From Bacteroidales bacterium (lineage in GTDB: Bacteria; Bacteroidota; Bacteroidia; Bacteroidales; JAAUTT01): a DNA stretch of 64,000 nucleotides. The notes under the pieces are model-generated. The model saw only the letters and a list, made by a program, of their open reading frames with translations. It did no database searches and was not told where the DNA came from. Of this stretch, positions 12,526 to 30,390 are shown in pieces; positions within the stretch are counted from its first letter, which is position 1; every line of letters begins with the position of its first letter. Both the position numbers and the translations under genes were made by a program. The stretch is from assembly GCA_036261135.1 (NCBI GenBank), contig DATALJ010000108.1, forward strand, positions 15,971 to 79,970, in the 5' to 3' direction.

Positions 12526-15500
12526 TTATTGTACGATAAGCTTTTTATTGAGTAATTCTTGCTTACCTACAACTTTCACAAAGTATACACCCGGTGCATA
12601 CCCTGTTATGTCGAGCTCATATACATCCTGATTTTCCGTTTCCACGATTTTAACCATTCTGCCATTACTATCGAGTAGGAATACTTTCACTTTCTCTTTC
12701 TCCATATGCTGAGCAAAGCGAATGTATACTTTTCCCGAAGCAGGATTAGGATACACTTCTGCTGAAACCTGGTTATCATTGTCTGCAATTCCTGTAGCAG
12801 GACTAACAGTAATATATCCGGTCTTTGTTTCGGTATCTGTTGATCCGGTTTTGGAAACAACCAGTTTTACAGTATAAGTACCGGAAGTGGTGTATGTAAA
12901 CGATGGATTTTTGGTTGTTGCATCAACGGTTCCATCGTTGTCGAAATCCCAGGCCCAGGTTGTAGGCGTTCCTGTAGACTGATCAGTGAAATTAACCTGT
13001 AATGGAGCTGAACCAGTGGTTTTATTTGCTGTAAATGCAGCTTCAACCGGAGCAGAAACAGTTATGTAGGCTGTCTTTGTTTCGGTATCCGAAGATCCGG
13101 TTTTGGAAGCAACCAGTTTTACCGTATAAGTGCCAGCAGCCGAATACGTGTACGACGGATTCTGCGTAGTAGCGTCTACTGTACCATCGTTGTTGAAATC
13201 CCAGGCCCAGGTTGTTGGTGTTCCTGTAGATTGATCGGTAAAATTAACCTGGAGTGGAGCAAGTCCTGAAGTTACATTTGCAGAGAAAGCAGCTTCTACC
13301 GGAGCAGAAACAGTTATGTATGCCGTCTTTGTTTCAGTATCCGAAGATCCGGTTTTGGAAGCAACCAATTTTACGGTATAAGTACCAGCTGCCGAATACG
13401 TGAACGACGGATTCTGCGTAGTAGCATCTACTGTACCATCGTTGTTAAAGTCCCAGGCCCAGGTTGTAGGTGTTCCTGTAGATTGATCGGTGAACGAAAC
13501 TACCAACGGACTTACTCCCGATGTTTTATTGGCTGTGAATTGAGCATCCACGGGTACATCAACCCTAATTTCATCAATTCCAATATCCGAGTTTCCACAA
13601 TCAGAAGTAGCCTTAAACCTCAGAACTGCATTTGACGATGTTATGTTCCCCAAATCAACAGAGACTTCTGTCCACTGATAATTGTATGATTCTGTAACTA
13701 AAGCATCCCCGAATGTCAGTCCTCCATCAACTGAGAGATAAACTTTTAAAAAGTCGCTTCCACCCGCATTGATATTCTGAAAGGTTAGTCTTTTGTTTCC
13801 TGCCAATGAAGAAAAATCAATATAAAAATCCAGGTATCCCGACTTGCCGGTATTTGCATAATAAGAATGAAAGCGTGCCGAATGCAAAGTATTTAATGCA
13901 CCTTCAGGACTATATGAACCATAATTATTGGACCAAACCCCTCTTGCGTAACCATCATCCGATCTGCTCCAGGAGGAATCGGTAGTTGCAGGTGAATTAA
14001 TCGCATATATTGAAGGGACATCGCGGGTAGCTCCTCTATTTACCCATTCATTTTCGAAATTCTCGGTAAATGGTAATGGTGCCTTATTGCAGGTTGTTAT
14101 GTATTGATTCTTTATTCGCGAAGCTATTGCTCCCGGTTTTGAGGTTACCAGTTTTACCGAATAAGACCCGATAGTTGTAAAGGTATAAGATGGATTTTGC
14201 GTTGTAGCATCCGTAATGCCGTCGTTATTGAAATCCCATGCCCAGGTTGTCGGTTCACCGGTGGACTGATCGGAAAAATTGACAGTGAAAGGGATTGGCC
14301 CAGTTTTTTTGTCAGCAGTAAATTCTGCGTTAATTGGTGTACTGGTTCCTATAGAAATTTCATCCAATCCGATATCCCAACTGCCATACGAGCCCTTTCC
14401 CTTAAACCGGACGATGCCTGTTGCCGTAGTTACATTTCCTAAATCGACAGTAACCATTGTCCAGGCATCAACAACACCCCTTTTATCAAGTAAATTGAAA
14501 GTAGCACCATTATCAGTAGACAAATACACTTTCAAAGAATCTCTTTCACTATAGCTTAAATACCAAAATGTAAGCGATTTACTTCCAGCAAGGGTGGAGA
14601 AATTAATATAATAATCCAGATTACCCTCTGCGGAAGTACTACATGAGTGGAATCTTGCTGAATGCCCTGTATTATTAGCTCCTACCGGAGTATAGTTTCC
14701 ATACGAACTGCCCCAGGCCCCTCTTTTTTCGCCATCATCATTACGACTCCAGGAATTATTGTCAGTTGCAGGAGAATTTACCACATACAGCGAGGGAACA
14801 TCGCGTGTTGCAGCTCTACTAATCCAATCGCCTTCAAAATTTTCGAATAATGGCAATGAAGCATAGCCACCCACAAAAATGGAGGCATTTTTTGAAATCG
14901 TTTCGGAGGAACCGGTTTTGTATGCCCTAAATTTAACCGAATAAACACCGGGCGTACTATAAGTGTGTGTTGCGTTTTGTGTAGATGCATCTACAGTTCC
15001 GTTGTTATCAAAATCCCACTCCCAATTGGTTGGGGCACCTGTTGATACATCTTTAAAACTCATAGTAAATGGAGCTATACCATAGGGAGTACCTGTATAA
15101 TAATCAGCCTTAACCGGCGATGCAGAAGGACTTTCAACGTAAATCTGATCCAGTCCGATATCACTCATCCCATTATCACCATAGGCAACAAACCGTACAA
15201 CACCTGTAGCAGAATTTACATCTCCCAATTCGACCTTAACATAGGTCCATGATGCAGCAACTTTTTGAACAGAAAGCCCTTTTCCAAAACTTGCCCCACC
15301 ATCTGTTGACAGGAACACTTTCAAGCTGTCCGATCCACTGGTATTGATATACCAAAAGCTTAGTGTTTTTGAACCTGCTTGCGTCGAAAAGTTAAGATTA
15401 AGATCCAGGTAACCACTTCTGCTTGTGCTATAAGTATGAATACGGGCCGAATGGTTTGTGCCATGTGCACCTTGAGGGAGATAACCGCCAGAATAGAAAT

Positions 15501-16518
15501 AATCATCGCGTCTCCACGAATTACTTCCTGTCGAATACTGATTTCTGAAATAAAGCGAAGGAACATCCGCTATGCTATCGCGGTTTATCCAATTGTTTTC
15601 GAAATTTTCGGTAAAAGGTAAACTGGCATAAGTTTGAGGGAGAACAATAATGTAATTGCTTTTTGTTTTTGAGAACGTTTCCGATCCTTTCGTACCTGTG
15701 AATTTAACTGAGTACGTCCCTGGAGTTGTATATGTATAACGGAAACCTTGCGTGGACGCATCTGCCGTACCATCATTATTAATGTCCCATTCCCACGCAG
15801 TTAAATCGATTGACGAAGAATCGGCAAACTGAATAGTAACCGGAGCCATTCCCGTATGTCTGCTGGCGAAAAAATCTAGCGTAATTGGAGTTGTAGGTGT
15901 TGTAACGCTTACATTATCGATACCTAAATCATCAGCGCCATAATCGCCTATTCCAACAAAGCGCAATACACATGTTGCTGATGTGGTTGATCCCAGGCTA
16001 ACCGAATATTTTGTCCATTTATTGGTTGGGTTGGTATTTAATTTAATAATAGGTTCCCCAAATGAAGTGCCGCCATCGGTAGAAAAATAGACCTTTAAAC
16101 TATCTACACCACTGGGATTAATATACCAAAAGGTCAATGTTTTTGTATCCGCATAACCCGAACAGTCGAGGTACAAGTCTAAAACACCTTTATTCTTCTT
16201 TGGCACAATATAAGCACGAAATCGGGCCGAATGGTTTGAGTAATTTGCACCGGAAGGGGAATATGCACCTCCCATACCACTCCATGCTCCACGATTCTGG
16301 CCATCATCATCCCTGCTCCAGGATGAGTCCGTAGTTGCAGGGGTATTCTTCCAATACGCAGAAGGGACATCGCGGGTAGCATCTTTATTTACCCAGGTAC
16401 CCTCAAATTGCTCATTAAAAGGCAAAGGAGCATACGTTTGTGCCGAATTTTTCTGATTTACGAAAAACCCGAAAAAAGATAAAGCAAGTAACAGAATGTA
16501 AAATTTCTTCATACGCAT
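12526..16518 (-). CDS. T9SS-secreted modular protein: 4 MAM/choice-of-anchor-J-like modules + 6 PKD domains + Por C-terminal sorting domain
   Basis: Signal peptide MRMKKFYILLLALSFFGFFVNQKNSAQ. The module (PLPFxENFExxW...RDVPSxY...SWSRxDDG...HSARFH...LTFWYIN...DSLKVYLSTDGGxTFG) occurs four times. PKD motif FxDxSTGxPTxWxWDFxNDGTxDA...Y occurs six times. C-terminus VYPNPASGKVYIRF...GVYFVKVVGKQELLNKKLIVQ. Confidence 0.85.
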   Translation of the reverse strand: MRMKKFYILLLALSFFGFFVNQKNSAQTYAPLPFNEQFEGTWVNKDATRDVPSAYWKNTPATTDSSWSRDDDGQNRGAWSGMGGAYSPSGANYSNHSARFRAYIVPKKNKGVLDLYLDCSGYADTKTLTFWYINPSGVDSLKVYFSTDGGTSFGEPIIKLNTNPTNKWTKYSVSLGSTTSATCVLRFVGIGDYGADDLGIDNVSVTTPTTPITLDFFASRHTGMAPVTIQFADSSSIDLTAWEWDINNDGTADASTQGFRYTYTTPGTYSVKFTGTKGSETFSKTKSNYIIVLPQTYASLPFTENFENNWINRDSIADVPSLYFRNQYSTGSNSWRRDDYFYSGGYLPQGAHGTNHSARIHTYSTSRSGYLDLNLNFSTQAGSKTLSFWYINTSGSDSLKVFLSTDGGASFGKGLSVQKVAASWTYVKVELGDVNSATGVVRFVAYGDNGMSDIGLDQIYVESPSASPVKADYYTGTPYGIAPFTMSFKDVSTGAPTNWEWDFDNNGTVDASTQNATHTYSTPGVYSVKFRAYKTGSSETISKNASIFVGGYASLPLFENFEGDWISRAATRDVPSLYVVNSPATDNNSWSRNDDGEKRGAWGSSYGNYTPVGANNTGHSARFHSCSTSAEGNLDYYINFSTLAGSKSLTFWYLSYSERDSLKVYLSTDNGATFNLLDKRGVVDAWTMVTVDLGNVTTATGIVRFKGKGSYGSWDIGLDEISIGTSTPINAEFTADKKTGPIPFTVNFSDQSTGEPTTWAWDFNNDGITDATTQNPSYTFTTIGSYSVKLVTSKPGAIASRIKNQYITTCNKAPLPFTENFENEWVNRGATRDVPSIYAINSPATTDSSWSRSDDGYARGVWSNNYGSYSPEGALNTLHSARFHSYYANTGKSGYLDFYIDFSSLAGNKRLTFQNINAGGSDFLKVYLSVDGGLTFGDALVTESYNYQWTEVSVDLGNITSSNAVLRFKATSDCGNSDIGIDEIRVDVPVDAQFTANKTSGVSPLVVSFTDQSTGTPTTWAWDFNNDGTVDATTQNPSFTYSAAGTYTVKLVASKTGSSDTETKTAYITVSAPVEAAFSANVTSGLAPLQVNFTDQSTGTPTTWAWDFNNDGTVDATTQNPSYTYSAAGTYTVKLVASKTGSSDTETKTAYITVSAPVEAAFTANKTTGSAPLQVNFTDQSTGTPTTWAWDFDNDGTVDATTKNPSFTYTTSGTYTVKLVVSKTGSTDTETKTGYITVSPATGIADNDNQVSAEVYPNPASGKVYIRFAQHMEKEKVKVFLLDSNGRMVKIVETENQDVYELDITGYAPGVYFVKVVGKQELLNKKLIVQ
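12795..13550. repeat. 3 x 252-bp near-identical tandem repeat (PKD domains 4-6) inside the T9SS gene
   Basis: CCGGAGCAGAAACAGTTATGTA recurs at 13047 and 13299, exactly 252 bp apart. The encoded 84-aa units are nearly identical (VEAAF(S/T)AN...TKTAYITVSAP). Confidence 0.85.
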
Positions 16519-19192: not shown

Positions 19193-20188
19193 TCAGGAAT
19201 TATAGGCCCATTTCAGGTACATGGATCCCCACGTAAAACCACCACCAAATGCTGAGATAATGAGGTTATCTCCTTTCTTCAGGCTCTTTTCGAGTTCCCA
19301 CATACACAAAGGAATGGTTGCAGCGGTTGTATTACCATAGCGCTGAATATTGATCATTACCTTGTCTTTACTTATTCCCATGCGGCGTCCAACAGCATCT
19401 ATTATCCTGAGGTTGGCCTGGTGTGGTATAAACCATGCAATATCATCGGGCTGTAGATTATTCTTCTCCATCATAGCTACAGACACATCGGCCATTTTAG
19501 TTACAGCCACTTTAAATACAGCCTGGCCATCCTGGTAAATATAATGTTCCTTGGCATCAACTGTTTGATGTGAGGCAGGTTTATACGATCCGCCCGCTTT
19601 TAAATTTAGCAATTCTTTGGCATAACCATCAATATGAAGTAAGCTGTCCATTACGCCAATTTCCTCGGTTGTAGGCTCAAGCATTAATGCAACCGCAGCA
19701 TCGCCAAACAAAACACAGGTTGTACGATCGGTATAATCCGTAATTGCCGACATTTTATCGCCAGCAACTAGTATAACTTTCTTATGATTTCCGCTTTCTA
19801 TAAATTGAATAGCAGTTTGCAACGAAAACAAGAATCCACAACAGGCAGCGCTTACGTCAAATCCATAGGCATTCTTAATTCCTGCTTTATGTGCTATAAG
19901 GCATGCAGTGGAAGGAAACATCATGTCGGGCGTAATGGTGCCGACTACGACTAATTCAACTTCTTCGGGCTTGGTTCCGGTTTTAGCTAGTAATTTTTTT
20001 ACGGCTTCTGCTCCCATGTCTGAAGTAGCGAGACCTTCACCTTTTAAAATTCTTCTTTCCTTAATACCTACACGCTGCATGATCCATTCATCGGATGTTT
20101 CAACCATACGGCTTAATTCTTCGTTGGTTAAAACATAGTCAGGCAGAAAGGCTTCTATACCTGTGATGGCTGCTCTAATTTTACTCAT
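19193..20188 (-). CDS. fabH: beta-ketoacyl-ACP synthase III
   Basis: 331 aa with [46 protein letters not shown], active-site context DVSAACCGF and C-terminal HQANLRI ... GGGFTWGS. Confidence 0.9.
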
Positions 20189-20232
20189 TTATTACGTATT
20201 TAAATTGTAAAACAAATCGGGGCTAAAGTTAA

Positions 20233-20985
20233 TTATCTTTTGGTTCGCACAAGCGACAAAACTCCGTTTATAAACGTTAAAGGATGCACAGGATTGCCTG
20301 GCACATATAAATCGATGGTATGTTTATCGAGAAATGACCGGTTAATTGCCGGACTATCAACGAATATGCCACCACTAATAGCATCTGTTCCCGCTAAAAT
20401 AATTATTTTGGGAGAAGGGATTGCGTTATACGTCATTTCTAGTGCGTCAGCCATATTGTGAGAGATAGGACCGGTAATTACAATCCCATCGGCGTGGCGG
20501 GGCGATGCCACAAACTCAATCCCAAAGCGGCCCATATCGAAGTTTACATTACTACATGCGTTCAACTCCCATTCGCAGCTGTTATCGCCGGCAGCCGAAA
20601 CCTGACGGAGCTTAAGCGATCCTTTAAAGAAGGAATAAATCTCCTTGCGTATCTTGTCTGGATTAACCTCTATGGGGGCATCCACGTTTTCACCGAGTAT
20701 TAAACGGTGCCTATCGTTGGTTGATAGCTTGTAATCCTTTGTAAACTTTATTTTCTCCGGGAATTCACGGGCACATTCCCCACAGAACGTGCATTTACCC
20801 AAATCTATCCGTACAGGATTTGAAAGAATAGCATCTGTGGGGCAAAGCGCCACTAATGACAGTTCATCAACCTTTACATCGGTAATTACAGGCCTTCCCC
20901 TGAAAATACCAGGAACCTGCGCTTTGGTAACGTCTGGTATGTATTGTTTACCCTGATGGTATAATATTTTAATATTTTCCAGCAT
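20233..20985 (-). CDS. ferredoxin-like domain fused to a NuoB/HycG-like small subunit, proximal-cluster ligands degenerate
   Basis: The C-terminal half, GRFGIEFVASPRHADGIVITGP...PSPKIIILAGTDAISGG...YVPGNPVHP, matches the NuoB/HycG pattern. However D, D and N sit where cysteines are expected. The N-terminus carries LCPTDAI and CTFCGECAREFP. Confidence 0.75.
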   Translation of the reverse strand: MLENIKILYHQGKQYIPDVTKAQVPGIFRGRPVITDVKVDELSLVALCPTDAILSNPVRIDLGKCTFCGECAREFPEKIKFTKDYKLSTNDRHRLILGENVDAPIEVNPDKIRKEIYSFFKGSLKLRQVSAAGDNSCEWELNACSNVNFDMGRFGIEFVASPRHADGIVITGPISHNMADALEMTYNAIPSPKIIILAGTDAISGGIFVDSPAINRSFLDKHTIDLYVPGNPVHPLTFINGVLSLVRTKR

Positions 20986-21027: not shown

Positions 21028-22527
21028 TTATAGATCGTGGCCACAATAAGAAAGATTGAAGCTCTTGTTACATATAGGAAAATCGGAGATTTCATTGTTT
21101 CGTACCGCCAAGGCTAACGCCAACCAGTTATGGAATGAAGGATCCTTAATTTTATATGTAGCGAGCTCGCCTGCATTATCGGTTATAGCGGCATGGCAGA
21201 TCTCACCGCGCCATCCTTCGGTTAATGAGATGGCAAATGTATTTGGCATTAAGCGCATATCAGCTTTAGACGGTGTTACCTGCTCAGAGACCTGATTCAA
21301 CAATTGTTTTATATAACCAAGCGATTGCTGAACCTCCTGTTTTCGTATCTGCGTGCGGGAATATACATCGCCATGATGTTTAATAATAGGTTCATGATTG
21401 AACTCACTGTACAAGCCGTATGGATGCGACTTACGAATATCCCGTTCCAGCGCATTCATACGCGCTGCCATACCCACCGTACCGATCGATTCCAATTGCT
21501 CTTTGGACAATGCTCCTGTACGTTCCAAGCGTGAAAGTGCGCTGGGTAAGGTCGAAGTCTGCTGGTACATTTCGTAGAATTCGGGTTCGTAAGCGTTTAA
21601 AATTTCTATAAACCGATTGGCCAGTTCTGCTGTATACGGATATTGGTTTCGTCCCGGGCGAATAAGTCCCTTGGCTAAACGATTACCACACCACTCCTGA
21701 AAATAGTTAATAATAGGCGTTCGCAATCGTCCAAACACGGAGCTTCCCAGTTGGTAAGCTATATCGGTGCTTATTGCACTTAAATCGCCGGTATGAATGG
21801 CAACCCGTTCGATTTCCTGCGCCAAAGTCCTTGCAAATAATATATCGCGACCGGCTTCAAATCCCGAAAGGCTCTCCCACAAATAGGCAAAGGCAGTGGT
21901 ATGCCCTACAACACTGTCGCCAGCAATATTTTCCGCTAACGTAGTGCGCTGCAACAACTTCTTTTTATTCAGGAATAAGTGTTCTACCCCCCTATGCTGA
22001 AATCCGAGTTGTATTTCAAGGTGCAAAATCTGCTCTCCGTTGCATACAAAACGGAAATGCCCAGGCTCTATAACACCTGCATGAACCGGACCTACTCCTA
22101 CTTCGTGCAATTCCTCACTTTCAATACCAAAGAAAGGGTAATTGCCAATTACCTGGCTTTGATCAGCCCTGTTGAATGGGTATTTTACAGGTTTTAGCCA
22201 TGGGTGGCCAACAAAGTTAACACCAAAGTTTTCGTGTATCTCACGTTCAAATTTCTCAAACGAGAGATGCCTGGTTGTAAAAGACTCCAATGAGGCTTTA
22301 GGATCCACAATGCACGAAGAAACCATGATATTGTGCTGCTGATCGTCTGCAATACAGCAAATAAGCTTTATGCCATTATCGGTACGATACCCAAAATAGG
22401 TAGCACAATGCCTTTCCTCATGTTTATCAATCAACCCTGTATTCAGTGCAAAGAATGTATTATAATCCAGTTCCGGAATACTGCTTACCGGTGTTGTTCC
22501 CTGGTTTTGTATAGTGATATATTCCAT
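21028..22527 (-). CDS. fused NuoC-NuoD/HycE(HyfG)-like large subunit lacking NiFe ligands
   Basis: GPVHAGVIEPGHFRF...LEIQLGFQHRGVEH is the conserved group-4 hydrogenase/NuoD core. The CGxC site reads NIAGDSVVGH and the C-terminus reads SFNLSYCGHDL. There is no CxxC anywhere in the 499 aa. Confidence 0.8.
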   Translation of the reverse strand: MEYITIQNQGTTPVSSIPELDYNTFFALNTGLIDKHEERHCATYFGYRTDNGIKLICCIADDQQHNIMVSSCIVDPKASLESFTTRHLSFEKFEREIHENFGVNFVGHPWLKPVKYPFNRADQSQVIGNYPFFGIESEELHEVGVGPVHAGVIEPGHFRFVCNGEQILHLEIQLGFQHRGVEHLFLNKKKLLQRTTLAENIAGDSVVGHTTAFAYLWESLSGFEAGRDILFARTLAQEIERVAIHTGDLSAISTDIAYQLGSSVFGRLRTPIINYFQEWCGNRLAKGLIRPGRNQYPYTAELANRFIEILNAYEPEFYEMYQQTSTLPSALSRLERTGALSKEQLESIGTVGMAARMNALERDIRKSHPYGLYSEFNHEPIIKHHGDVYSRTQIRKQEVQQSLGYIKQLLNQVSEQVTPSKADMRLMPNTFAISLTEGWRGEICHAAITDNAGELATYKIKDPSFHNWLALALAVRNNEISDFPICNKSFNLSYCGHDL

Positions 22528-22530
22528 AAA

Positions 22531-23958
22531 CTACTTAGGTAAAATGTTTATAGCATCGTATATAAGGCTGTTAAAAGCGGCAGGCGGATTTAAACCAAGC
22601 CACATAGCCGCAAACAACAGTAAATACTGGGTTAACGATTCCCATGGATTTATTTTAGGCACACTTCCTTCGTCAAATCCGACAGGTGGTGTGAACAGAA
22701 TCTTGAAAATGTTCTTACCAAAGGCCCAGATGATAATGGTAAGCAGCAAAAGCACCAGCAGCAAGACGATGATAAAATGACCTTCGAAAAGCGACCGGAA
22801 AATAAGAAATTCACTCACAAACATTCCTGAAGGAGGCATCGCGGTTGCGCTTATAAAACCAATTAATAGCACAATGGCGCCAGCAGGGTTATATTTAAAG
22901 TAGTTGCCTACGTGAAATATGCTCTTATTTTGAAAGACACGATACAACTGGTTGAACTGAAAGAACAGACTCGATTTAACAAAGGTATGAAGTACAATAT
23001 GCAGTAATGCCGCATAATAACCAATACCCCCTGCCGCAATTCCAAGCATTACAATACCCATGTGCTCAATGCCCGAGTAAGCCAGCATGCGTTTGATGTT
23101 CATCACCTTGGTCATGTAAACCGTAGCTACGAAAATAGAAAGTATAGCAGAAATAAGGATTACAAGGTTAGCCCAATGATGCAGCGGGGTATGGGCAACA
23201 ACTGCGTAGAAACGGAAGAACCCAACAAACCCCATATTCATAAGCACACTGGCAAGCAATGCTCCTACAGGTGCTGGCGCTGTATCTTTAGCATCGATAC
23301 CAGCCGTATACATAGGAACAAGACCCAACTTAGCTGTAAAACCAGTAAAAATAAACAGAAATGCCAGCCGCAACCAGAATGGATTCAGTTTGCTGCTATT
23401 GGCCATTAAGTTGGCGAACGAAAGATCATCGGACCCGGCATGCTGCAGCGATAGGCTTAGAAACAATATCCCAATAAAAATAAAGGTAACACTGATAGCA
23501 CAAATAAATACGTATTTCCAAACTCCCTCCAATGCTAACTTATTACGGTGATGATATATCAGAGCCGAAGCACTAAGCGTTGTTAGTTCGGTAAATATCC
23601 AGATTACCGCTATATGATTGGATAAGTAAGCTGCAGTAATAGATGTAATAAGAATGATAATGGATGAGAAATATATAGCCCTGGATTGAGGCGTTTCCTT
23701 ATGGGTTTCGATATATATATAACTATGAATAAGTGCAGGAATACTTACAATACTAAGCGTTATAAGAAGCAATAAGCCCAAAGAATCGATAGTGAAGTAT
23801 TCCAGCTCGGTGGCCTTGTGATGGTAGCAGCTGTAAATGGTAAATCCCAATTGCAATGCAGCAAAAGCCCCAATAAGTATATTATTCAAAAGCTTGTTCC
23901 GGTTAACGAAAAGCAAACCGCCAATTACAAATGCCCCTATTAAATAAATTGCAGTCAT
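22531..23958 (-). CDS. NuoN/HyfF-like antiporter-type membrane subunit
   Basis: 475 aa, about 14 TM helices, Mrp/NuoLMN-type proton-conducting membrane transporter pattern (...AKLGLVPMYTAGIDAKDTAPAPVGALLASVLMN...). Confidence 0.8.
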   Translation of the reverse strand: MTAIYLIGAFVIGGLLFVNRNKLLNNILIGAFAALQLGFTIYSCYHHKATELEYFTIDSLGLLLLITLSIVSIPALIHSYIYIETHKETPQSRAIYFSSIIILITSITAAYLSNHIAVIWIFTELTTLSASALIYHHRNKLALEGVWKYVFICAISVTFIFIGILFLSLSLQHAGSDDLSFANLMANSSKLNPFWLRLAFLFIFTGFTAKLGLVPMYTAGIDAKDTAPAPVGALLASVLMNMGFVGFFRFYAVVAHTPLHHWANLVILISAILSIFVATVYMTKVMNIKRMLAYSGIEHMGIVMLGIAAGGIGYYAALLHIVLHTFVKSSLFFQFNQLYRVFQNKSIFHVGNYFKYNPAGAIVLLIGFISATAMPPSGMFVSEFLIFRSLFEGHFIIVLLLVLLLLTIIIWAFGKNIFKILFTPPVGFDEGSVPKINPWESLTQYLLLFAAMWLGLNPPAAFNSLIYDAINILPK

Positions 23959-23973
23959 TATCTGTATTGTATA

Positions 23974-24606
23974 TTAATAATCTTTTAAATTGCTCAACTG
24001 GTCCACATCTACATCCTTAAACACGTCGCCAATCTTTTGTAAGAAGATACCCAGAATTAATACGCTGGCAAAGATGTCAAGCATTACGCCAAGGTTCACC
24101 AGCATGGGCATCTCATTACCTACAGCCAGCGAAAGTACAAACACGCCGTTTTCTATAATCAGGTAACCAATTACGTGTGTAATAATCTTTCTGCGTGATG
24201 CAATAAGGTACAATCCTGTAAACAGCGTAGAAAGCGCTACAATAAAGAATATCTTGTCCAGTTTGGTATCCTTAATGGAATTGGCGAGCAAAATCGTCAC
24301 AATAATAATAACCGTGGTAATTACCAGCGAAAGAAAATTTGGGAGGTAAGGCTCAGCCTCACGTGTAATATTATTCCGTTTCAACAGGTAACCCAAAAAG
24401 ATAGGGACAGCAAGCGCTTTGAACACAACCGTTTCCAAAAGTATGAGCACCAGGTTCAATGTATTGATCTCGTGCAGTTGAAGAAATGTAACTCCAAAGA
24501 GAATAAAGCCCTGTGCGGTTAGTATGTTGACATAGGTAATGATCCTGTTGGCAATTGAAAGGTACAACAGCGTAATAATAAATGTAATGAGCAAAACGTT
24601 TATCAT
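23974..24606 (-). CDS. HyfE-like small membrane subunit (NuoK-related)
   Basis: 210 aa, six to seven TM helices. It sits between the NuoH-like and NuoN-like genes, as hyfE does. Confidence 0.65.
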   Translation of the reverse strand: MINVLLITFIITLLYLSIANRIITYVNILTAQGFILFGVTFLQLHEINTLNLVLILLETVVFKALAVPIFLGYLLKRNNITREAEPYLPNFLSLVITTVIIIVTILLANSIKDTKLDKIFFIVALSTLFTGLYLIASRRKIITHVIGYLIIENGVFVLSLAVGNEMPMLVNLGVMLDIFASVLILGIFLQKIGDVFKDVDVDQLSNLKDY

Positions 24607-24618
24607 TTCTTCAATTTT

Positions 24619-25524
24619 TTAAATGAATTTTCCCAAAACCAACAGTACTCCGAAAAATATAAGCAGGCTCACCGACGAAAGCGCAAATATGAACTGTGCA
24701 TTATGGCTCATGCGGAAACGGGCCATAAATGATTCGATTAAACCTACTGATATGGCAAACAGCACCTGCGCCCCGGCGAATATGGCCAATGAAACAGGTA
24801 ACGAAAGTCCGCCAATAAAGAGATTCGTAATAATTGCACCATACATGGCAAATTTCAGATAGCCGGCAGACAGAATCAGTCCCAGATCGAAACCGCTATT
24901 ATCAAGTACAATCACCTCGTGTACCATAGTAAGCTCGAGATGTGTTTTTGGGTCGTCTATTGGCATTCGACTATTTTCGATCATCGCAATCATCACCAAC
25001 ACGAAGGTTGCAAGAGCACCCAACGCGTAAGTTATGTAACTACCGAGATGTAAAGCCGCAAATATGTCGTGAAAAGAAGTATAGCCAGTTAACAAAGCAA
25101 ATGAGCCCATAAGAATGAAGAATGCAGGCTCAGCAAACATCGAATACAATGCTTCGCGGCTGGCGCCCATGCCTTCGAAACTACTTCCCGTATCGAGTGC
25201 GGAAATGATAGTAAAAAACTTACCCAGGGCCAGTAAATAGGCGAAAAAGATGAAATCTCCGTCGAAACTGATCAGTCCTTTTTCACTTCCAAAGGGTACA
25301 GCGCATAAGGCCATTGCAACAGAAGAGAAATAAACAACCGGAGCCAGCTTAAACACAAAACTGGTGGTTTCGCTATATACAGCACCTTTCTTGAACAAAC
25401 GAACCACATCTTTCAAGGGCTGGAAAATGCCAGGGCCTTTCCTTCCCGCAGTAATGCTCTTGGTTCGGATAATTATTCCTGTGAAAAACAGGCTGGCTAT
25501 AAGAATTAATAATAAGCTCAGCAT
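24619..25524 (-). CDS. NuoH/HycD(HyfC)-like membrane subunit
   Basis: 301 aa. The N-terminus IIRTKSITAGRKGPGIFQPLKDVVRLFKKG matches the NuoH/HycD signature (GRxGPxxxQPxxDxxKLxxK). Confidence 0.8.
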   Translation of the reverse strand: MLSLLLILIASLFFTGIIIRTKSITAGRKGPGIFQPLKDVVRLFKKGAVYSETTSFVFKLAPVVYFSSVAMALCAVPFGSEKGLISFDGDFIFFAYLLALGKFFTIISALDTGSSFEGMGASREALYSMFAEPAFFILMGSFALLTGYTSFHDIFAALHLGSYITYALGALATFVLVMIAMIENSRMPIDDPKTHLELTMVHEVIVLDNSGFDLGLILSAGYLKFAMYGAIITNLFIGGLSLPVSLAIFAGAQVLFAISVGLIESFMARFRMSHNAQFIFALSSVSLLIFFGVLLVLGKFI

Positions 25525-25525
25525 C

Positions 25526-27553
25526 TTATATATGATTTAAAAAGTTCAAAAATACGGTTATCTTTTCGATCAGTAAGGGAACCACTATTACAGCGCCTAT
25601 AAACAATATCCCATAGAGGATGTAAATTTGAAGATTCCCATTTTGCAGGAAGGCAAAACGATCGATCGCTGTTTTTATCCATAATAGGGGTTTATCAATA
25701 AATATACGCTCAATTTTATCGTATGGGTGCGTTTCGTAATGTTTCGACGAGGGAAACACCTCTGTAATTTCAATTTCTTTTTTACCTATGTCTAAAACAG
25801 GCTTCACCAGTTTAGTATAGCTGCGCACAAATGAATTAGCTGTGTACTGTAGCTTGGTATCGGTAGTTTCATAAGCGCAACCCCAGGTAGGTTGTACTTC
25901 TACATCTCTGTTTTTTGTGGCAAGCTTACGTAATCCATATATTATAAGAATGAGTACAAGAAAGCCCGCACTGTACCAGTTAATGTCGAATAGTGAATCG
26001 ATAGCACCAACCTTGATCAGGTTCAGATTAAACACCCCCTCCTGAATAAAAAGACGGACGGGCTGTTGCAAGATCGTAATAAACAAAGTGGGGAACAATC
26101 CTATCAAAACAATCAATGTACCTATCAGATATAATGGGAAAAGCTGCCAGAATGTAACCTCCTTGATATGTTTATGCTCCTTGTGGCGCATGTTACCTAA
26201 AAATACAATTCCAAATGCCTTGGTAAAACAGAGTAAAGCAAGTCCTCCGATCATCACAAGCCCCAGAATGGCGAAAATAATTACAATTAACGATACCAGA
26301 CCGGCACTAAACAGCCAGTTGTAAATTCCACCATATATCAAAAATTCCGACACGAAGCCATTCAAAGGAGGCAATCCGCAAATAGCAAGAGCAGCAAGCA
26401 AAAACAAGAATGCCGTTTGGGGCATCTTCTTCACAAAGCCACCCATTCGCTCAATGTTCATGGAATGGATCTTCTGGTAAATATTTCCTGTACTAAAGAA
26501 CAGAAGCGACTTAAACAACGAATGATTCAGCGTATGCAGCAAAGCACCGGAAAATCCGAGTATAGCCATCCATTTATTGGCTTCGCCGATGCCTAAACAT
26601 CCAATACCTATTCCAATGCCAATTATTCCAATGTTTTCGATACTGTGATAAGCCAGTAACCTTTTCAAATTGTGCTGTATAATAGCTAACATCACTCCAT
26701 AAACGCCCGAAATAAGCGATACAAATAATATAATAAAACCAATACTGGTATAATCCGCTTTTATAAGCAATAACATGCGAAGAATACCATAAATTCCTAT
26801 CTTAATGATAACTCCAGACATCATACCCGATACATGCGAAGGAGCAGCAGGGTGTGCATAAGGCAGCCATGTATGAAAAGGAACAAATCCAGCCTTTATA
26901 GCAAAGCCAATAAAGAAACACAAGAAAAGAACTGTTCCTGCGAGTAGCGTCTGGCTCGAAGAAAAGGCTGTTATTGCAGAGAACTGATAACTACCCGTTT
27001 TATATGCAACAAATATGAAAGCCAGCATAAGGAACACAATAGAAATATGCGATTGCACCAGGTAATTGATACCTGCCTTTAATGTGTCCTCCTTGTAATG
27101 CTCAAAAATGACCAATACAAATGCCGAAACAGCCATTATTTCCCAGCAAAGAAGAAATGCCATCCCGTTTTGTACTCCACAAATGCTGATTAGCCCGGCA
27201 TGAGTAAGTATAAAAGCAATACAATGCAGTGTAATATTGTTTTTTTGGTTAATATACTGCCGCATATAATGAAAACCGTATATTCCACCGGTTATCATCG
27301 TAAAGTTAATAGTCAAAATAAACCATGCGGACAAGGCATCAACGGAAACAGGCACTTGGCCGAACGAAGTGGCACCTGTTAATACAGTTTCGAAGGTATG
27401 TCCCATCAAAGCCTGCGCTGCAACAAAAGAACTTAACAAAGCATTTGTAATTACAGCAACAAGCGCAATAATCCCCTTGCCTTTGGTTCCGGCAAACAGG
27501 ATAGCGCCTATAGCTATAAAAACGATGATTAAAAAAACACTAATCAATGCCAT
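25526..27553 (-). CDS. NuoL/HyfB-like antiporter-type membrane subunit (copy 2)
   Basis: 675 aa with TWLPYAHPAAPSHVSGMMSGVIIKIGIYGILR and ...HSLFKSLLFFSTG. C-terminal extension containing TWGCAY. Confidence 0.85.
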   Translation of the reverse strand: MALISVFLIIVFIAIGAILFAGTKGKGIIALVAVITNALLSSFVAAQALMGHTFETVLTGATSFGQVPVSVDALSAWFILTINFTMITGGIYGFHYMRQYINQKNNITLHCIAFILTHAGLISICGVQNGMAFLLCWEIMAVSAFVLVIFEHYKEDTLKAGINYLVQSHISIVFLMLAFIFVAYKTGSYQFSAITAFSSSQTLLAGTVLFLCFFIGFAIKAGFVPFHTWLPYAHPAAPSHVSGMMSGVIIKIGIYGILRMLLLIKADYTSIGFIILFVSLISGVYGVMLAIIQHNLKRLLAYHSIENIGIIGIGIGIGCLGIGEANKWMAILGFSGALLHTLNHSLFKSLLFFSTGNIYQKIHSMNIERMGGFVKKMPQTAFLFLLAALAICGLPPLNGFVSEFLIYGGIYNWLFSAGLVSLIVIIFAILGLVMIGGLALLCFTKAFGIVFLGNMRHKEHKHIKEVTFWQLFPLYLIGTLIVLIGLFPTLFITILQQPVRLFIQEGVFNLNLIKVGAIDSLFDINWYSAGFLVLILIIYGLRKLATKNRDVEVQPTWGCAYETTDTKLQYTANSFVRSYTKLVKPVLDIGKKEIEITEVFPSSKHYETHPYDKIERIFIDKPLLWIKTAIDRFAFLQNGNLQIYILYGILFIGAVIVVPLLIEKITVFLNFLNHI

Positions 27554-29568
27554 AAATTCAGTATAGTTCCAATGAATACAAAGAGCACAAACAAGATTCC
27601 ATAAAGGACATAAGCCTGTACCTTACCGTTTTGTACAAATTTAAAAAGGTCTATAAAATATTGAAGTCGATCCGTTACAGGATTGATCATGCGTTGTTCA
27701 AAAAAATCTAGATAATGAGAAGAATATCTGCGGGTTTTCGGAAAAATCTCATCGCTTTTCAGCTCGGTGTATGACTTTTTCTCAATCAATACAAAATGAA
27801 ACAACTTGCCCAGCGACTTGGAGAAAGATTTCCCGGTATATTGAATTTTAGACGTAGGCGCAACATAGCCACAGCCCCATGTTTGCCCATAATTAATTTC
27901 CTTAGCCACAGAAACACGCGAACGCAACAGGTATATCAATCCAACAAAAGCCAGGAACAACAGAGAGTATAAACTAATCTGCTGCATTACAGACGCATAG
28001 TGAAAGAAAGCTGGATTAGCCACCATATTTAAATTGGGGAATATGCCTCCAACTACCGTATTCATCAACTGAATGAAATAACCGGGAAGAAAAGCTACCA
28101 ACAGCATAAACCCAACAACAACATACTGAGGGACCAGCATAATCTTAGAAACTTCTTCCGGTTCGTGGTGTAAATGTTGGCGTTGGGTGCCAAGAAAAAT
28201 GGTACCAAAGGTTTTCGTAAAAGTAAGTATTGAGATACCACCTATAATGCTTAATCCGGCAAAGGACAGCACCATCAGGGTTATTTCTGCGATGTTCGAC
28301 GACTCAATGCCATTCAACAACCCGCAATAGATAATGAATTCAGAAATAAAACCATTAAATGGGGGAATTCCTCCAATGGCAATAGCGCCAAGCAGGAATA
28401 AGACTGCTGTTTGGGGCATTTTCTTTGCCAATCCGCCCAGTTTATCCATATCGCGTGTATGTGTTTGCTGGTACACAGCGCCAACAGAGAAAAACAACAG
28501 CGACTTAAACAGCGAATGGTTGAGTACATGCAACAAAGCGCCACCAAATCCCAGGAAAACTAGGAGATTATTGCTTCGGCCCAAGCCTATTAAACCAAGT
28601 CCCATTCCTATTCCAATAATACCAATATTTTCGATGGTACAATACGCCAACATCCTTTTAAAATCGCGATGTACCGCAGCGTTCATTATACCAAACAAGC
28701 CGGTTAATACGGATACCGAAAGAACTATCTCTCCAAGTAATATAAAATCTGACTTTACAAAGGTTATAACACGCAAAATACCGTAAATACCCATTTTTAC
28801 AATTACCCCCGACATTACCCCAGATACATGCGAAGGTGCAGCGGGATGTGCATGAGGCAACCATGTGTGTAACCCTATAAACCCGGCTTTTAAACCAAAA
28901 CCTGCAAAAAACAGAAGAAAAAGCCAGATATTGGCATTAGTGCCAAAAAACGTTCCTATTCCTTTAAAATCGAATGTTCCGGTTTGAAAATATACCCAGA
29001 TAAAAGCAATGGTAAGAAACACAACACTCAGGTGCATTTGGACCATATAGTTTATGCCTGCTTTCAATACCTTGGGGTCGGTATGCTCAAACAATACAAG
29101 AAACATAGATGATATGGACATGATTTCCCAAGCTACCAGAAAGGCGATGCTGTTTTGGATCATGCAAACCCAAAGCATAGAAGACTGGAAAAGCAAAAAG
29201 AAAATCCAATGTACTGTTAATATGGACCGCAAAGGTTTATACGCTTTTAAATAGCCTATACCATAAAGAATGCCAGCGGTAGAGATTAGGTTTATAATCA
29301 GAATGAACCATGCAGAGAGTGGATCAATTCGAAAAGGTATCACACCTAAAAAAGTGCCTCCGGCAACGTTCACTTCAATTCCATTGGAAATGATGCCCTG
29401 GATCGCAATATAACTTGTTATCAGTGCGTTTAAACCGGCAAATACAAAAGTTGAAATGGCTTTTACACGTTCAGGCAGTAGTATTACCAACGTAATACCT
29501 GCCACCAATACCCCAAAATGCAATAATAAAAGAAAGCTATTCAATTCAAAACCTTCAAATCCCATCAT
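27544..29568 (-). CDS. NuoL/HyfB-like antiporter-type membrane subunit (copy 1)
   Basis: 674 aa, a paralogue of the next gene (TWLPHAHPAAPSHVSGVMSGVIVKMGIYGILR; C-terminal TWGCGY). Overlaps the next gene by 10 nt. Confidence 0.85.
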   Translation of the reverse strand: MMGFEGFELNSFLLLLHFGVLVAGITLVILLPERVKAISTFVFAGLNALITSYIAIQGIISNGIEVNVAGGTFLGVIPFRIDPLSAWFILIINLISTAGILYGIGYLKAYKPLRSILTVHWIFFLLFQSSMLWVCMIQNSIAFLVAWEIMSISSMFLVLFEHTDPKVLKAGINYMVQMHLSVVFLTIAFIWVYFQTGTFDFKGIGTFFGTNANIWLFLLFFAGFGLKAGFIGLHTWLPHAHPAAPSHVSGVMSGVIVKMGIYGILRVITFVKSDFILLGEIVLSVSVLTGLFGIMNAAVHRDFKRMLAYCTIENIGIIGIGMGLGLIGLGRSNNLLVFLGFGGALLHVLNHSLFKSLLFFSVGAVYQQTHTRDMDKLGGLAKKMPQTAVLFLLGAIAIGGIPPFNGFISEFIIYCGLLNGIESSNIAEITLMVLSFAGLSIIGGISILTFTKTFGTIFLGTQRQHLHHEPEEVSKIMLVPQYVVVGFMLLVAFLPGYFIQLMNTVVGGIFPNLNMVANPAFFHYASVMQQISLYSLLFLAFVGLIYLLRSRVSVAKEINYGQTWGCGYVAPTSKIQYTGKSFSKSLGKLFHFVLIEKKSYTELKSDEIFPKTRRYSSHYLDFFEQRMINPVTDRLQYFIDLFKFVQNGKVQAYVLYGILFVLFVFIGTILNLWH

Positions 29569-29778: not shown

Positions 29779-30390
29779 ATGATCGGAGTAATCACGGGTA
29801 ACATCATCAATTCCAATAAGTACGATGCGAAGTTTTGGCTTCCTATACTCAAGCACACCTTATTGCAGTACGGAACCGAAACCAATACATGGGAAATCTT
29901 CCGGGGCGATCATTTTCACCTGGAAATCGGCAAACCCGAGCTCTCGCTTTTGGTTGCCATTCATATCAAAGCGGCCATAAGGCAGGTAAAAGGCCCCGAT
30001 GTGCGAATGGCCATAGGCATTGGCGAAAAAGGGAATAATAGCACCAAAATGTACGAAAACAATGGTAGTGCCTACATTTTTTCGAATGAAGAGTTTCATA
30101 AGCAAAAACAGCCCTTATCCTTAAAAACACAATGGCCGGAATTCGATAAGGAATACAACATTCACCTCGCACTTGCCTCTATAATCATTGACGGATGGAC
30201 CACTAATGCCGCAAAAACCATCAACACCATATTCGAAAGCCGGTCGCCATTATCGCAAGCCGAAATTGGCCAAAAACTAGGCATTAAACAATCTGGCACC
30301 AGCCAACGCTTGGCGCGCGCAAACTACAAAGAAATTATTGAGTTCGAAGAATTGTTCTGTAAGAAGGTTATTGAGCTGATTGGCGCTTAA
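29779..30390 (+). CDS. SatD-family-like putative transcriptional regulator (N-terminal cyclase-like fold, C-terminal HTH)
   Basis: MIGVITGNIINS..., ...IFRGDHFHLEI... and ...RMAIGIGEK... follow the SatD pattern (ITGDIxxS / GDEFQ / GIGIG). C-terminal HTH is LSQAEIGQKLGIKQSGTSQRLARA. Confidence 0.45.
   Translation: MIGVITGNIINSNKYDAKFWLPILKHTLLQYGTETNTWEIFRGDHFHLEIGKPELSLLVAIHIKAAIRQVKGPDVRMAIGIGEKGNNSTKMYENNGSAYIFSNEEFHKQKQPLSLKTQWPEFDKEYNIHLALASIIIDGWTTNAAKTINTIFESRSPLSQAEIGQKLGIKQSGTSQRLARANYKEIIEFEELFCKKVIELIGA

Follow-up and report, generated by a model that had tools for sequence, protein, structure and literature searches.

Ehr complexes, so called for being energy-converting-hydrogenase-related, are defined by a large subunit without the RxCGxCxxxH and DPCxxCxxH/R motifs, and their function is given as unknown in the literature (PMC4758237, PMC6349859, PMC10284858, PMC4378227, PMC10432482, PMC7304191). 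They occur in many phyla, where annotation pipelines routinely label them ‘hydrogenase-4’, ‘Ni,Fe-hydrogenase III small subunit’ and the like, or else ‘NADH:ubiquinone oxidoreductase’, and what they do has been an open question since 2005. In Geobacter sulfurreducens, EhrA-D/EhrL/EhrS make up a group 4-related membrane complex with NuoH-like and NuoL/M/N-like subunits and a large subunit without NiFe motifs (PMC6349859, PMC10284858, PMC4378227, PMC7894505). Across the superfamily, electrons pass from a donor through the distal (N6a), medial (N6b) and proximal (N2) clusters to the substrate (PMC7021789). Here we describe a predicted Ehr-type operon from a Bacteroidales bacterium (assembly GCA_036261135.1, contig DATALJ010000108.1, forward-strand positions 15,971 to 79,970; this whole stretch of 64,000 nucleotides is the window), the last gene of which fuses a ferredoxin-like subunit to a small subunit. 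The product is very probably the fused peripheral subunit of a seven-gene, Hyf-like Ehr complex, with ligands for the medial cluster only.

The window complex shares the general architecture of the Geobacter complex and differs from it in that the ferredoxin and small subunits are fused and the N2 and N6a sites are gone; in the accessible literature Ehr is defined by the large subunit alone. In its subunits and their order (HyfB, C, D, E, F, G, H, I-like) it matches Escherichia coli hydrogenase-4 and hydrogenase-3 (Hyf/Hyc; formate hydrogenlyase, FHL; 7Z0S), with HycG recovered by sequence (E 1.2e-16) and by Foldseek (E 2.9e-11). In E. coli, however, HycF and HycG are separate, carry two plus one [4Fe-4S] clusters and feed a [NiFe] site, whereas the window has a single chain with one predicted cluster and no [NiFe], in an operon without HyfA/HycB or a formate dehydrogenase partner. 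MbhJ of Pyrococcus furiosus MBH (6CFW: MbhJ/MbhN/MbhL) is the best match of the C-terminal half in both sequence and fold, and MBS/Mbx (6U8Y) shows that loss of NiFe chemistry need not abolish function in this family. Unlike the fusion, MBH and MBS keep all three [4Fe-4S] clusters. In MBS the proximal cluster is proposed as the catalytic site (PMC7684303); the fusion has no such cluster, the proximal ligands expected of an MBS-type sulfane-sulfur reductase are absent and the match to MbsJ is weak (E 9.5e-10).

The NuoB (PSST, NdhK) and NuoI (TYKY, NdhI) subunits of complex I/NDH-1 have homologous folds and the station order N6a-N6b-N2 (PMC7021789), but the fusion lacks the N2 and N6a ligand sets, the NuoD-like subunit lacks the quinone-site Tyr and Arg, and NCBIfam NuoB, NuoI and NuoD scores lie far below cutoff. 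A comparison at the level of function is with Mrp antiporters, which the complex resembles in having three Proton_antipo_M subunits with a Glu in transmembrane helix 5 (TM5) and a Lys in TM7 and no demonstrable redox input, with antiport presumed. Mrp antiporters differ in having MrpE/F/G and in lacking NuoH-, NuoB-, NuoD- and NuoI-like subunits.

Cluster ligands of the fused subunit

The open reading frame (ORF) of the fusion runs from 20985 to 20233 on the minus strand and encodes 250 aa; the plus-strand frame is riddled with stops. It is intact in the window, and its translation is identical to the NCBI protein of a Bacteroidales metagenome-assembled genome (MAG). The domains and ligand positions are:

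20233-20985, minus strand: fused NuoI/HycF-like and NuoB/HycG-like subunit, 250 aa (Pfam Oxidored_q6, PDB alignments, AlphaFold2)
20686-20985, minus strand: N-terminal NuoI/NdhI/HycF-like domain, aa 1 to ~100, with the sole complete [4Fe-4S] site (NdhI and MbhN alignments)
20842-20844, minus strand: Cys48 (TGC), the ‘CP’ Cys of motif 1 and fourth N6b-type (medial) ligand
20773-20793, minus strand: Cys65-x2-Cys68-x2-Cys71 of motif 2, the other three N6b-type ligands
20761-20763, minus strand: Phe75 (TTC), replacing the fourth Cys of motif 2, an N6a ligand (NdhI alignment, ‘CveyCP’)
20584-20586, minus strand: Asp134 (GAT), N2 ligand 1 position
20575-20577, minus strand: Cys137 (TGC), N2 ligand 2, retained, conservation not strict
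20383-20385, minus strand: Asp201 (GAT), N2 ligand 3 position
20293-20295, minus strand: Asn231 (AAT), N2 ligand 4 position (PGCPP to PGNPV)

The N-terminal half matches, over aa 59-97, the second CxxCxxCxxxCP motif in NdhI of chloroplasts and cyanobacteria (E 7.6e-8 to 3.8e-4) and is collinear over aa 16-93 with MbhN 23-106 (E 0.12), including the N-terminal P..FRG segment and the segment past motif 2. Profile scores are low, with a match to NF006221 at aa 16-94 (E 7e-4), NCBIfam NuoI, ndhI and PRK08348 below cutoff (26.9 against 113 for NuoI TIGR01971) and Pfam Fer4 signals near aa 58-90 that are sub-threshold only. In 2x[4Fe-4S] ferredoxins, each cluster is held by three Cys of one motif and the Cys-Pro of the other. 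In the fusion only C48-P is left of motif 1, and motif 2 has become C65-x2-C68-x2-C71-x3-F75-P, short of the eight-Cys set of NuoI and HycF.

We assigned these ligands to stations by way of complex I. Ala159 of NuoI/TYKY is described as ‘next to Cys126 coordinating cluster N6a’ (PMC9783039). The fourth Cys of CIYCGFCQEACP comes after it, at residue 160; subtracting the 34-residue presequence gives 126, which makes the fourth Cys of motif 2 an N6a ligand. The ligand assignment of Thermus Nqo9 agrees. With motif 1 reduced and Phe75 at that position, all four N6a (distal) ligands are lost, and all four N6b (medial) ligands, C48, C65, C68 and C71, are kept.

The C-terminal half is matched by Pfam Oxidored_q6, the NuoB/hydrogenase small-subunit domain, at aa 136-244 (E 1.3e-18; 67.4 bits against a cutoff of 27). 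Using phmmer against all PDB chains, we aligned aa 120-244 with MbhJ (6cfw_J, E 1.7e-21) and also recovered E. coli HycG (7z0s_G, E 1.2e-16), NDUFS7 and dozens of complex I PSST/NuoB chains. An AlphaFold2 (AF2) model of the fusion protein, built from a 70-sequence alignment (pLDDT 93.2, pTM 0.89), superposes its C-terminal half on MbhJ with 1.8 Å root-mean-square deviation (rmsd) over 132 columns, and Foldseek gives probability 1.00 to many NuoB chains; the NCBIfam scores for NuoB (81.4 against a cutoff of 116) and nuoB_fam (74.7 against 142.7) fall short. In the alignments to the solved MbhJ, HycG and NDUFS7, the N2 ligand positions are Asp134, Cys137, Asp201 and Asn231. AGDNSCEWE stands opposite GSCNGCDIE of MbhJ around ligand 1, GTDAISGG opposite GACPTGG around ligand 3 and VPGNPVHP opposite VPGCPPRP around ligand 4. 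The cysteines of the fusion protein are at positions 48, 65, 68, 71, 137 and 144.

These results agree for the most part with an initial annotation of the window made by eye, which had read the gene as a HycF/NuoI-like ferredoxin joined to a HycG/NuoB-like small subunit. The NdhI second-motif match (E 7.6e-8), the Pfam match (Oxidored_q6, 1.3e-18) and the AF2 model (pLDDT 93; C-terminal half 1.8 Å from MbhJ) uphold that fusion, and the phmmer alignments to MbhJ, HycG and NDUFS7 reproduce the D/D/N that it placed at N2 ligands 1, 3 and 4. Its view that the ferredoxin half can ligate a single cluster holds as one composite four-Cys site (C48 with C65/C68/C71, and F75 at the missing Cys), and its view that the canonical electron wire is broken holds with D/D/N at three of the four proximal ligands and that one four-Cys site left. 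All the motifs it quoted are present: LVALCPTDAI at aa 44, CTFCGECAREFP at aa 65, AGDNSCEWE at aa 132, GRFGIEFVASPRHADGIVITGP at aa 152, PSPKIIILAG at aa 190, GTDAISGG at aa 199 and VPGNPVHP at aa 228. It was mistaken in finding no Cys after residue ~135, for C137 and C144 exist, with none beyond 144, and C137 is the retained second ligand. It gave no strand, and it left out the NiFe-less large subunit, the medial identity of the kept cluster and the fixation of this state across Bacteroidota.

Large subunit, operon and membrane arm

The operon, from 29568 to 20233, consists of seven co-directional, closely packed genes in the order HyfB-HyfB-NuoH-HyfE-HyfF-large subunit-fusion. The genes that precede the fusion gene, listed from it outwards, are:

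21028-22527, minus strand: NuoC-NuoD/HycE-like large subunit without [NiFe] ligands (Ehr type), 499 aa (Pfam Complex1_49kDa and Complex1_30kDa)
22531-23958, minus strand: HyfF/NuoN-like antiporter-like subunit, 475 aa (Pfam Proton_antipo_M, 1.4e-41)
23974-24606, minus strand: HyfE-like small membrane subunit, 210 aa (NCBIfam ‘hydrogenase 4 membrane subunit’, E 1.8e-18, below cutoff; Pfam Oxidored_q2 weak)
24619-25524, minus strand: NuoH/HycD-like subunit, 301 aa, with an altered TM5-6 loop motif (Pfam NADHdh, 3.5e-36; HycD alignment)
25526-27553, minus strand: HyfB-like antiporter-like subunit 2, 675 aa (Pfam Proton_antipo_M, 2.7e-52)
27544-29568, minus strand: HyfB-like antiporter-like subunit 1, 674 aa, the first gene of the operon (Pfam; NCBIfam ‘hydrogenase 4 subunit B’, E 3.5e-145, below cutoff)

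The large subunit is homologous to MbhL (E 2.2e-28) and HycE (E 2.3e-27) and matches Pfam Complex1_49kDa (3.2e-32). At the place of the L1 motif RxCGxCxxxH it reads N-I-A-G-D-S-V-V-G-H (N-I-A-G-D-S being aa 200-205, nt 21913-21930), and at that of the C-terminal DPCxxCxxR/H motif it reads N-L-S-Y-C-G-H-D-L (NLSYCG, nt 21031-21057). None of the four [NiFe] cysteines is in register, and the same is true of relatives. Against Aquifex NuoCD, the positions of the complex I Arg and the quinone-site Tyr are Asn and Gly. G203 and D204 are invariant in 72 sequences, N2-retaining relatives included, and the hydrogenase-type GPxHxGxIEPGHFRF segment (GPxHAGxIEPGHFRF) is kept together with its Glu; the former active site appears to be under conservation for something other than NiFe binding. 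C486 and C495, conserved in five sequences, were considered as substitute ligands and rejected, being present in 60/72 and 47/72 of the wider set.

Lacking the [NiFe] cysteines, the large subunit leaves the wire without a destination. Among the four stations, N6a has lost all four ligands, N2 three of four and [NiFe] all four, the Tyr and Arg of the complex I quinone site are absent too, and N6b is complete. To judge from these ligand positions, the surviving N6b cluster would be cut off on both sides.

A group 4/NuoD-like large subunit without NiFe motifs, with NuoH-like, antiporter-like and small-subunit genes alongside, identifies the operon by sequence as an Ehr-type complex, a class already named in the literature. 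Both the NiFe cysteines and the four-Cys proximal site of a group 4 [NiFe]-hydrogenase (Hyc/Hyf/Mbh/Ech) are absent, and no Hyp maturation gene was found within the 64-kb window or in conserved flanks of related loci. NCBIfam matches are below cutoff for all subunits scanned (4/7), and the subunits are therefore not assignable as NuoB, NuoD, NuoI or Hyf equivalogs. One isolated cluster, no NiFe and no conserved quinone Tyr/Arg together argue against every standard redox annotation.

In the membrane arm, TM5 Glu and TM7 Lys/His motifs can be read in all three antiporter-like subunits (WE..., K...H.WLP.AH..AP), and the TM7 Lys region of the HyfF/NuoN-like subunit is kept in alignments to NdhB and NuoM. 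The three subunits, and the arm that they would form, look intact.

The NuoH-like subunit keeps its conserved core, but its TM5-6 loop (aa 183-198; nt 24931-24978, minus strand) reads ENSRMPIDDPKTHLEL. Relative to the canonical NuoH loop E..R.PFDL.E.E.EL (PFDLAEAEQEL in HycD), two Glu are replaced by Lys and His, and the resulting DDPKTHLEL is kept in ~61/67 Bacteroidota loci. The Lys position is A or N in two N2-retaining Ehr relatives (L089, L092) and R in a relative with DTDN at the N2 positions (L084). A link between K/R in this loop and N2 loss was set aside as too thin, with two lineages against two and exceptions.

Distribution and graded cluster loss

Using a scan of species genomes (one genome per species), we found at least 597 confirmed relatives of the fusion protein and took the best 80 for their loci; database protein matches number more than 8000, the best 120 of them 73-100% identical. 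The best 80 of the at least 597 relatives are all from Bacteroidota, including Bacteroidales, Prolixibacteraceae, Lentimicrobiaceae, Rikenellaceae, Paludibacter, Chitinophagaceae, Saprospiraceae and Flavobacteriales, with aerobes and anaerobes both present. A cultured carrier among them, Chryseolinea serpens DSM 24574, makes the question of the Ehr driving force testable. The seven-gene order is strictly syntenic, with the fusion gene last, in ~60 complete loci (every contig long enough). We clustered the 826 flanking ORFs of the 80 loci and found no family common to more than five loci, and no conserved formate dehydrogenase, NuoEF, HyfA or hyp gene in these flanks; with no family so shared, there is no electron-input module nearby.

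The D/D/N set of the initial annotation proved invariant in orthologues. D134, D201 and N231 are unchanged in 120/120 best homologues, as are C48, C65, C68 and C71, and across species genomes and contigs the former are unchanged in all 82 N2-less sequences and the latter in 85/85. With its key residues invariant, the pattern is not one of chance decay. C137 is C in 118/120 and 79/85, with T/A/G/N in some members and T in DTDN relatives; its loss in 6/85 and the Thr of the DTDN relatives argue against a residual N2 cluster. Position 75 is F in 67/85 and C in 9/85. Median identity is 72% for the fusion protein and 74% for the NuoH-like subunit versus 55-65% for HyfB, HyfF and the large subunit; choosing the loci for their likeness to the fusion protein biases this comparison.

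Conservation on this scale bears on whether the gene might be a decaying remnant, or an artefact of assembly or annotation, without function. Products of that kind do occur among relatives, where P0121, P0140, P0153 and P0183 are frameshifted and come from error-rich contigs. The window ORF, however, is intact and identical to the NCBI protein of the MAG, its AF2 model is confident, and seven-gene synteny and 68-76% identity extend across Bacteroidota orders with the key residues invariant. These conservation data effectively refute a loss of function, which we consider extremely improbable.

Relatives were also gathered from 1.84 billion cluster representatives (50% identity), which gave 3838 matches. 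Credible full-length fusions include 18 with N6a, N6b and N2, 12 with N6b and N2 and at least 12 with N6b only, a series in which N6b is the cluster kept when its neighbours go and the one-cluster Bacteroidota state is one end-point of graded cluster loss in related lineages. The N6b-only relatives read DCDN, DTDN, DNDH, DIDD, DVDS, DEDS, DDDS and others at the N2 positions; in sister lineages ligand 2 is T/N/I/V/E/D, and ligand 4 varies among N, S, D and H. Apparent cluster-free variants, the four frameshifted products named above, were rejected, since their N-termini are out of frame on error-rich contigs; on the contig of P0121 (L094, 10001-10756) nearly every gene is fragmented, and frameshifts make the cluster-free (‘-/-’) rows of our table of relatives unreliable. 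N2-retaining (CCCC) relatives adjoin large subunits with the same IAGD[ST] and CNKSFxLSYCGxDL motifs (P0125, P0126, P0127, P0128, P0133; L001, L082, L083, L089, L092). As three-, two- and one-cluster relatives all share the Ehr-type large subunit, NiFe loss came before N2 loss. A second N2-less lineage (P0159, L087) has another gene order, with RVSGTA and a C-terminus of ...AGCDR as its large-subunit motifs.

To place the replacements, we built a neighbour-joining tree with the ligand columns removed, in which deep nodes have bootstrap values <70. The acidic sets (DCDN/DTDN; DIDD/DEDS/DDDS; DVDS; ECED) fall among the CCCC lineages in two to four or so separate places, two being the minimum, a pattern that with such support is no more than suggestive. 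Going from Cys (TGY) to Asp (GAY) takes two base changes. The repeated arrival of Asp at ligands 1 and 3 thus looks like the work of selection rather than neutral change. The three-, two- and one-cluster series with its recurrent Asp amounts to a natural experiment that could separate the parts of the Q-module needed for coupling from those needed for electron transfer.

Such recurrence could also mean that the pocket of D134, C137, D201 and N231 holds another cofactor, either a mononuclear Fe, Mn or Zn or an unconventional cluster, which would restore transfer from N6b or create a new catalytic site and leave the complex chemically driven. In MBS, a NiFe-less relative, chemistry is reported to have moved to the proximal site (PMC7684303). 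The three replacement residues are invariant and chemically capable of binding metal, the pocket backbone is predicted to be unchanged (1.8 Å rmsd to MbhJ), and in separate lineages the same two positions again carry acidic residues. We nevertheless regard another cofactor as unlikely. To our knowledge there is no precedent for an Fe-S cluster ligated by a single Cys, and C137 is itself replaceable; the fourth position varies by lineage, and its Asn is a poor metal ligand; and neither the window nor the flanks of the 80 loci have a metallochaperone or maturation gene linked to the operon.

As far as the accessible literature shows, the fixed N6b-only state, the fusion and the recurrent Asp replacements are an undescribed variant of Ehr. 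That literature speaks only of the large subunit, and the primary accounts (Coppi 2005; Marreiros et al. 2013, BBA 1827:198), which lie outside its scope, may mention small-subunit Cys loss. The finding overturns nothing established; the Bacteroidota Ehr clade does flag widespread misannotation.

Several loci have features of their own. In a Draconibacterium MAG (L056, 10839-15842), a second partial set, HyfB-NuoH-HyfE-HyfF, comes right after the complete operon, with neither a large- nor a small-subunit gene ahead of the run of N's that marks an assembly gap. In 5/80 Bacteroidota loci there is a Crp/FNR-like ORF upstream. Among N2-retaining Ehr operons on metagenome contigs, a regulator of the Rrf2 family, whose members often bind Fe-S clusters, lies just downstream, and another such operon has an HTH_17 and PTS_EIIA_2 protein just upstream (L089, 10976-11410; L090, 10976-11410; L092, 2721-3461).

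Possible roles of the complex, and neighbouring genes

In described complexes, N2 lies ~12 Å from the substrate pocket (PMC8577454) and donors dock beside N6a (PMC7021789). With the ligands of N2, N6a and [NiFe] lost, the remaining cluster would be unable to join donor to substrate by the canonical route; the fusion protein would bind one [4Fe-4S] cluster with no redox partner flanking it. This locus sharpens the question of how a complex-I-like pump with a cut wire is energised.

One answer would be a relay through the single cluster, in which a soluble donor (ferredoxin or flavodoxin) reduces N6b and N6b reduces a substrate (menaquinone, polysulfide or other) at a relocated site, so that the complex would remain a redox pump with a shortened wire. 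Such a relay fits the N6b ligands, which are never lost in credible sequences, the high conservation of the peripheral subunits and the GPxHxGxIEPGHFRF segment with its retained Glu, and redox coupling has been proposed for other Ehr complexes (PMC6349859). Its geometry is unfavourable, however, as the medial cluster is buried between N6a and N2 in homologous structures (PMC7021789), and it is N2, not N6b, that comes within ~12 Å of the substrate site (PMC8577454), with the known donor site beside the lost N6a. The quinone Tyr/Arg and the NiFe ligands are absent as well, and no conserved partner genes lie nearby. We consider a relay of this kind quite unlikely.

An intact-looking membrane arm combined with a broken wire favours a redox-independent translocator. 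We propose that the complex would be neither a ferredoxin- nor an H2-linked redox pump and would act as a redox-independent ion translocator resembling an Mrp antiporter, with the conserved peripheral module surviving as a conformational or regulatory cap. The lone cluster ties one half of the NuoI fold to the other and would for that reason most likely be structural, holding this NuoI-like fold together; alternatively, it may sense redox state or O2. An isolated structural cluster has a precedent in N7 of bacterial complex I (NuoG). N7 lies off the electron pathway (PMC8577454). Asp134 and Asp201, in the former N2 cavity, could stand in for the approximately -2 charge of [Fe4S4(Cys)4] or could form a proton- or cation-binding switch. 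The redox-independent mechanism by itself falls somewhat short of an even chance; blended with the identity of the complex, the explanation as a whole stands slightly above one.

Several points weigh against a redox-independent translocator. The distances from cluster to surface and from cluster to pocket are taken from homologous structures. Conservation of the fusion protein (median 72%, in a biased sample) exceeds what a passive cap needs, and the strictly kept N6b is compatible with a redox role as well. Electron transfer probably persists in N2-retaining relatives, and levels of Geobacter Ehr subunits go up on formate (PMC7894505), which together point to a family that is ancestrally redox-linked. 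MrpE/F/G-type subunits are absent from the operon, and the complex is not simply an Mrp. The neighbour-joining tree, for its part, has weakly supported deep nodes.

It is also conceivable, if doubtful, that electron transfer has been abandoned altogether and that the former redox module is a non-redox switch. D134 and D201, with N231, would then take up and give off a proton or cation, thereby gating or driving the antiporter-like subunits via the altered NuoH loop (DDPKTHLEL), with N6b either structural or a sensor of O2 or redox state. If this were true, the repeated independent replacement of Cys by Asp/Glu at the same two positions would be adaptive.

Around the operon, a gene for FabH (3-oxoacyl-ACP synthase III; 19193-20188, minus strand) follows the fusion gene on the same strand after 44 nt (20189-20232) and may be co-transcribed with the operon in the window; this adjacency recurs in only 1/80 related loci (L067). 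A divergent ORF of 203 aa (29779-30390, plus strand) begins 210 nt upstream of the operon and has a sub-threshold SatD-family match (E 5e-4); it has no NCBIfam match and is not conserved beside the operon elsewhere. The rest of the 64-kb window is unrelated and includes, besides FabH, an outer-membrane beta-barrel protein, RsgA, a TldD/PmbA pair, an acyl-CoA ligase and a hybrid histidine kinase. At 12526-16518 (minus strand), the translation reads as a predicted secreted protein of 1330 aa, in which four internal repeats of ~280 aa (‘YA(S/P)LPF.E.FE..W..R....DVPS...’) alternate with PKD-like modules and the C-terminal tail looks like a sorting domain for type IX secretion.

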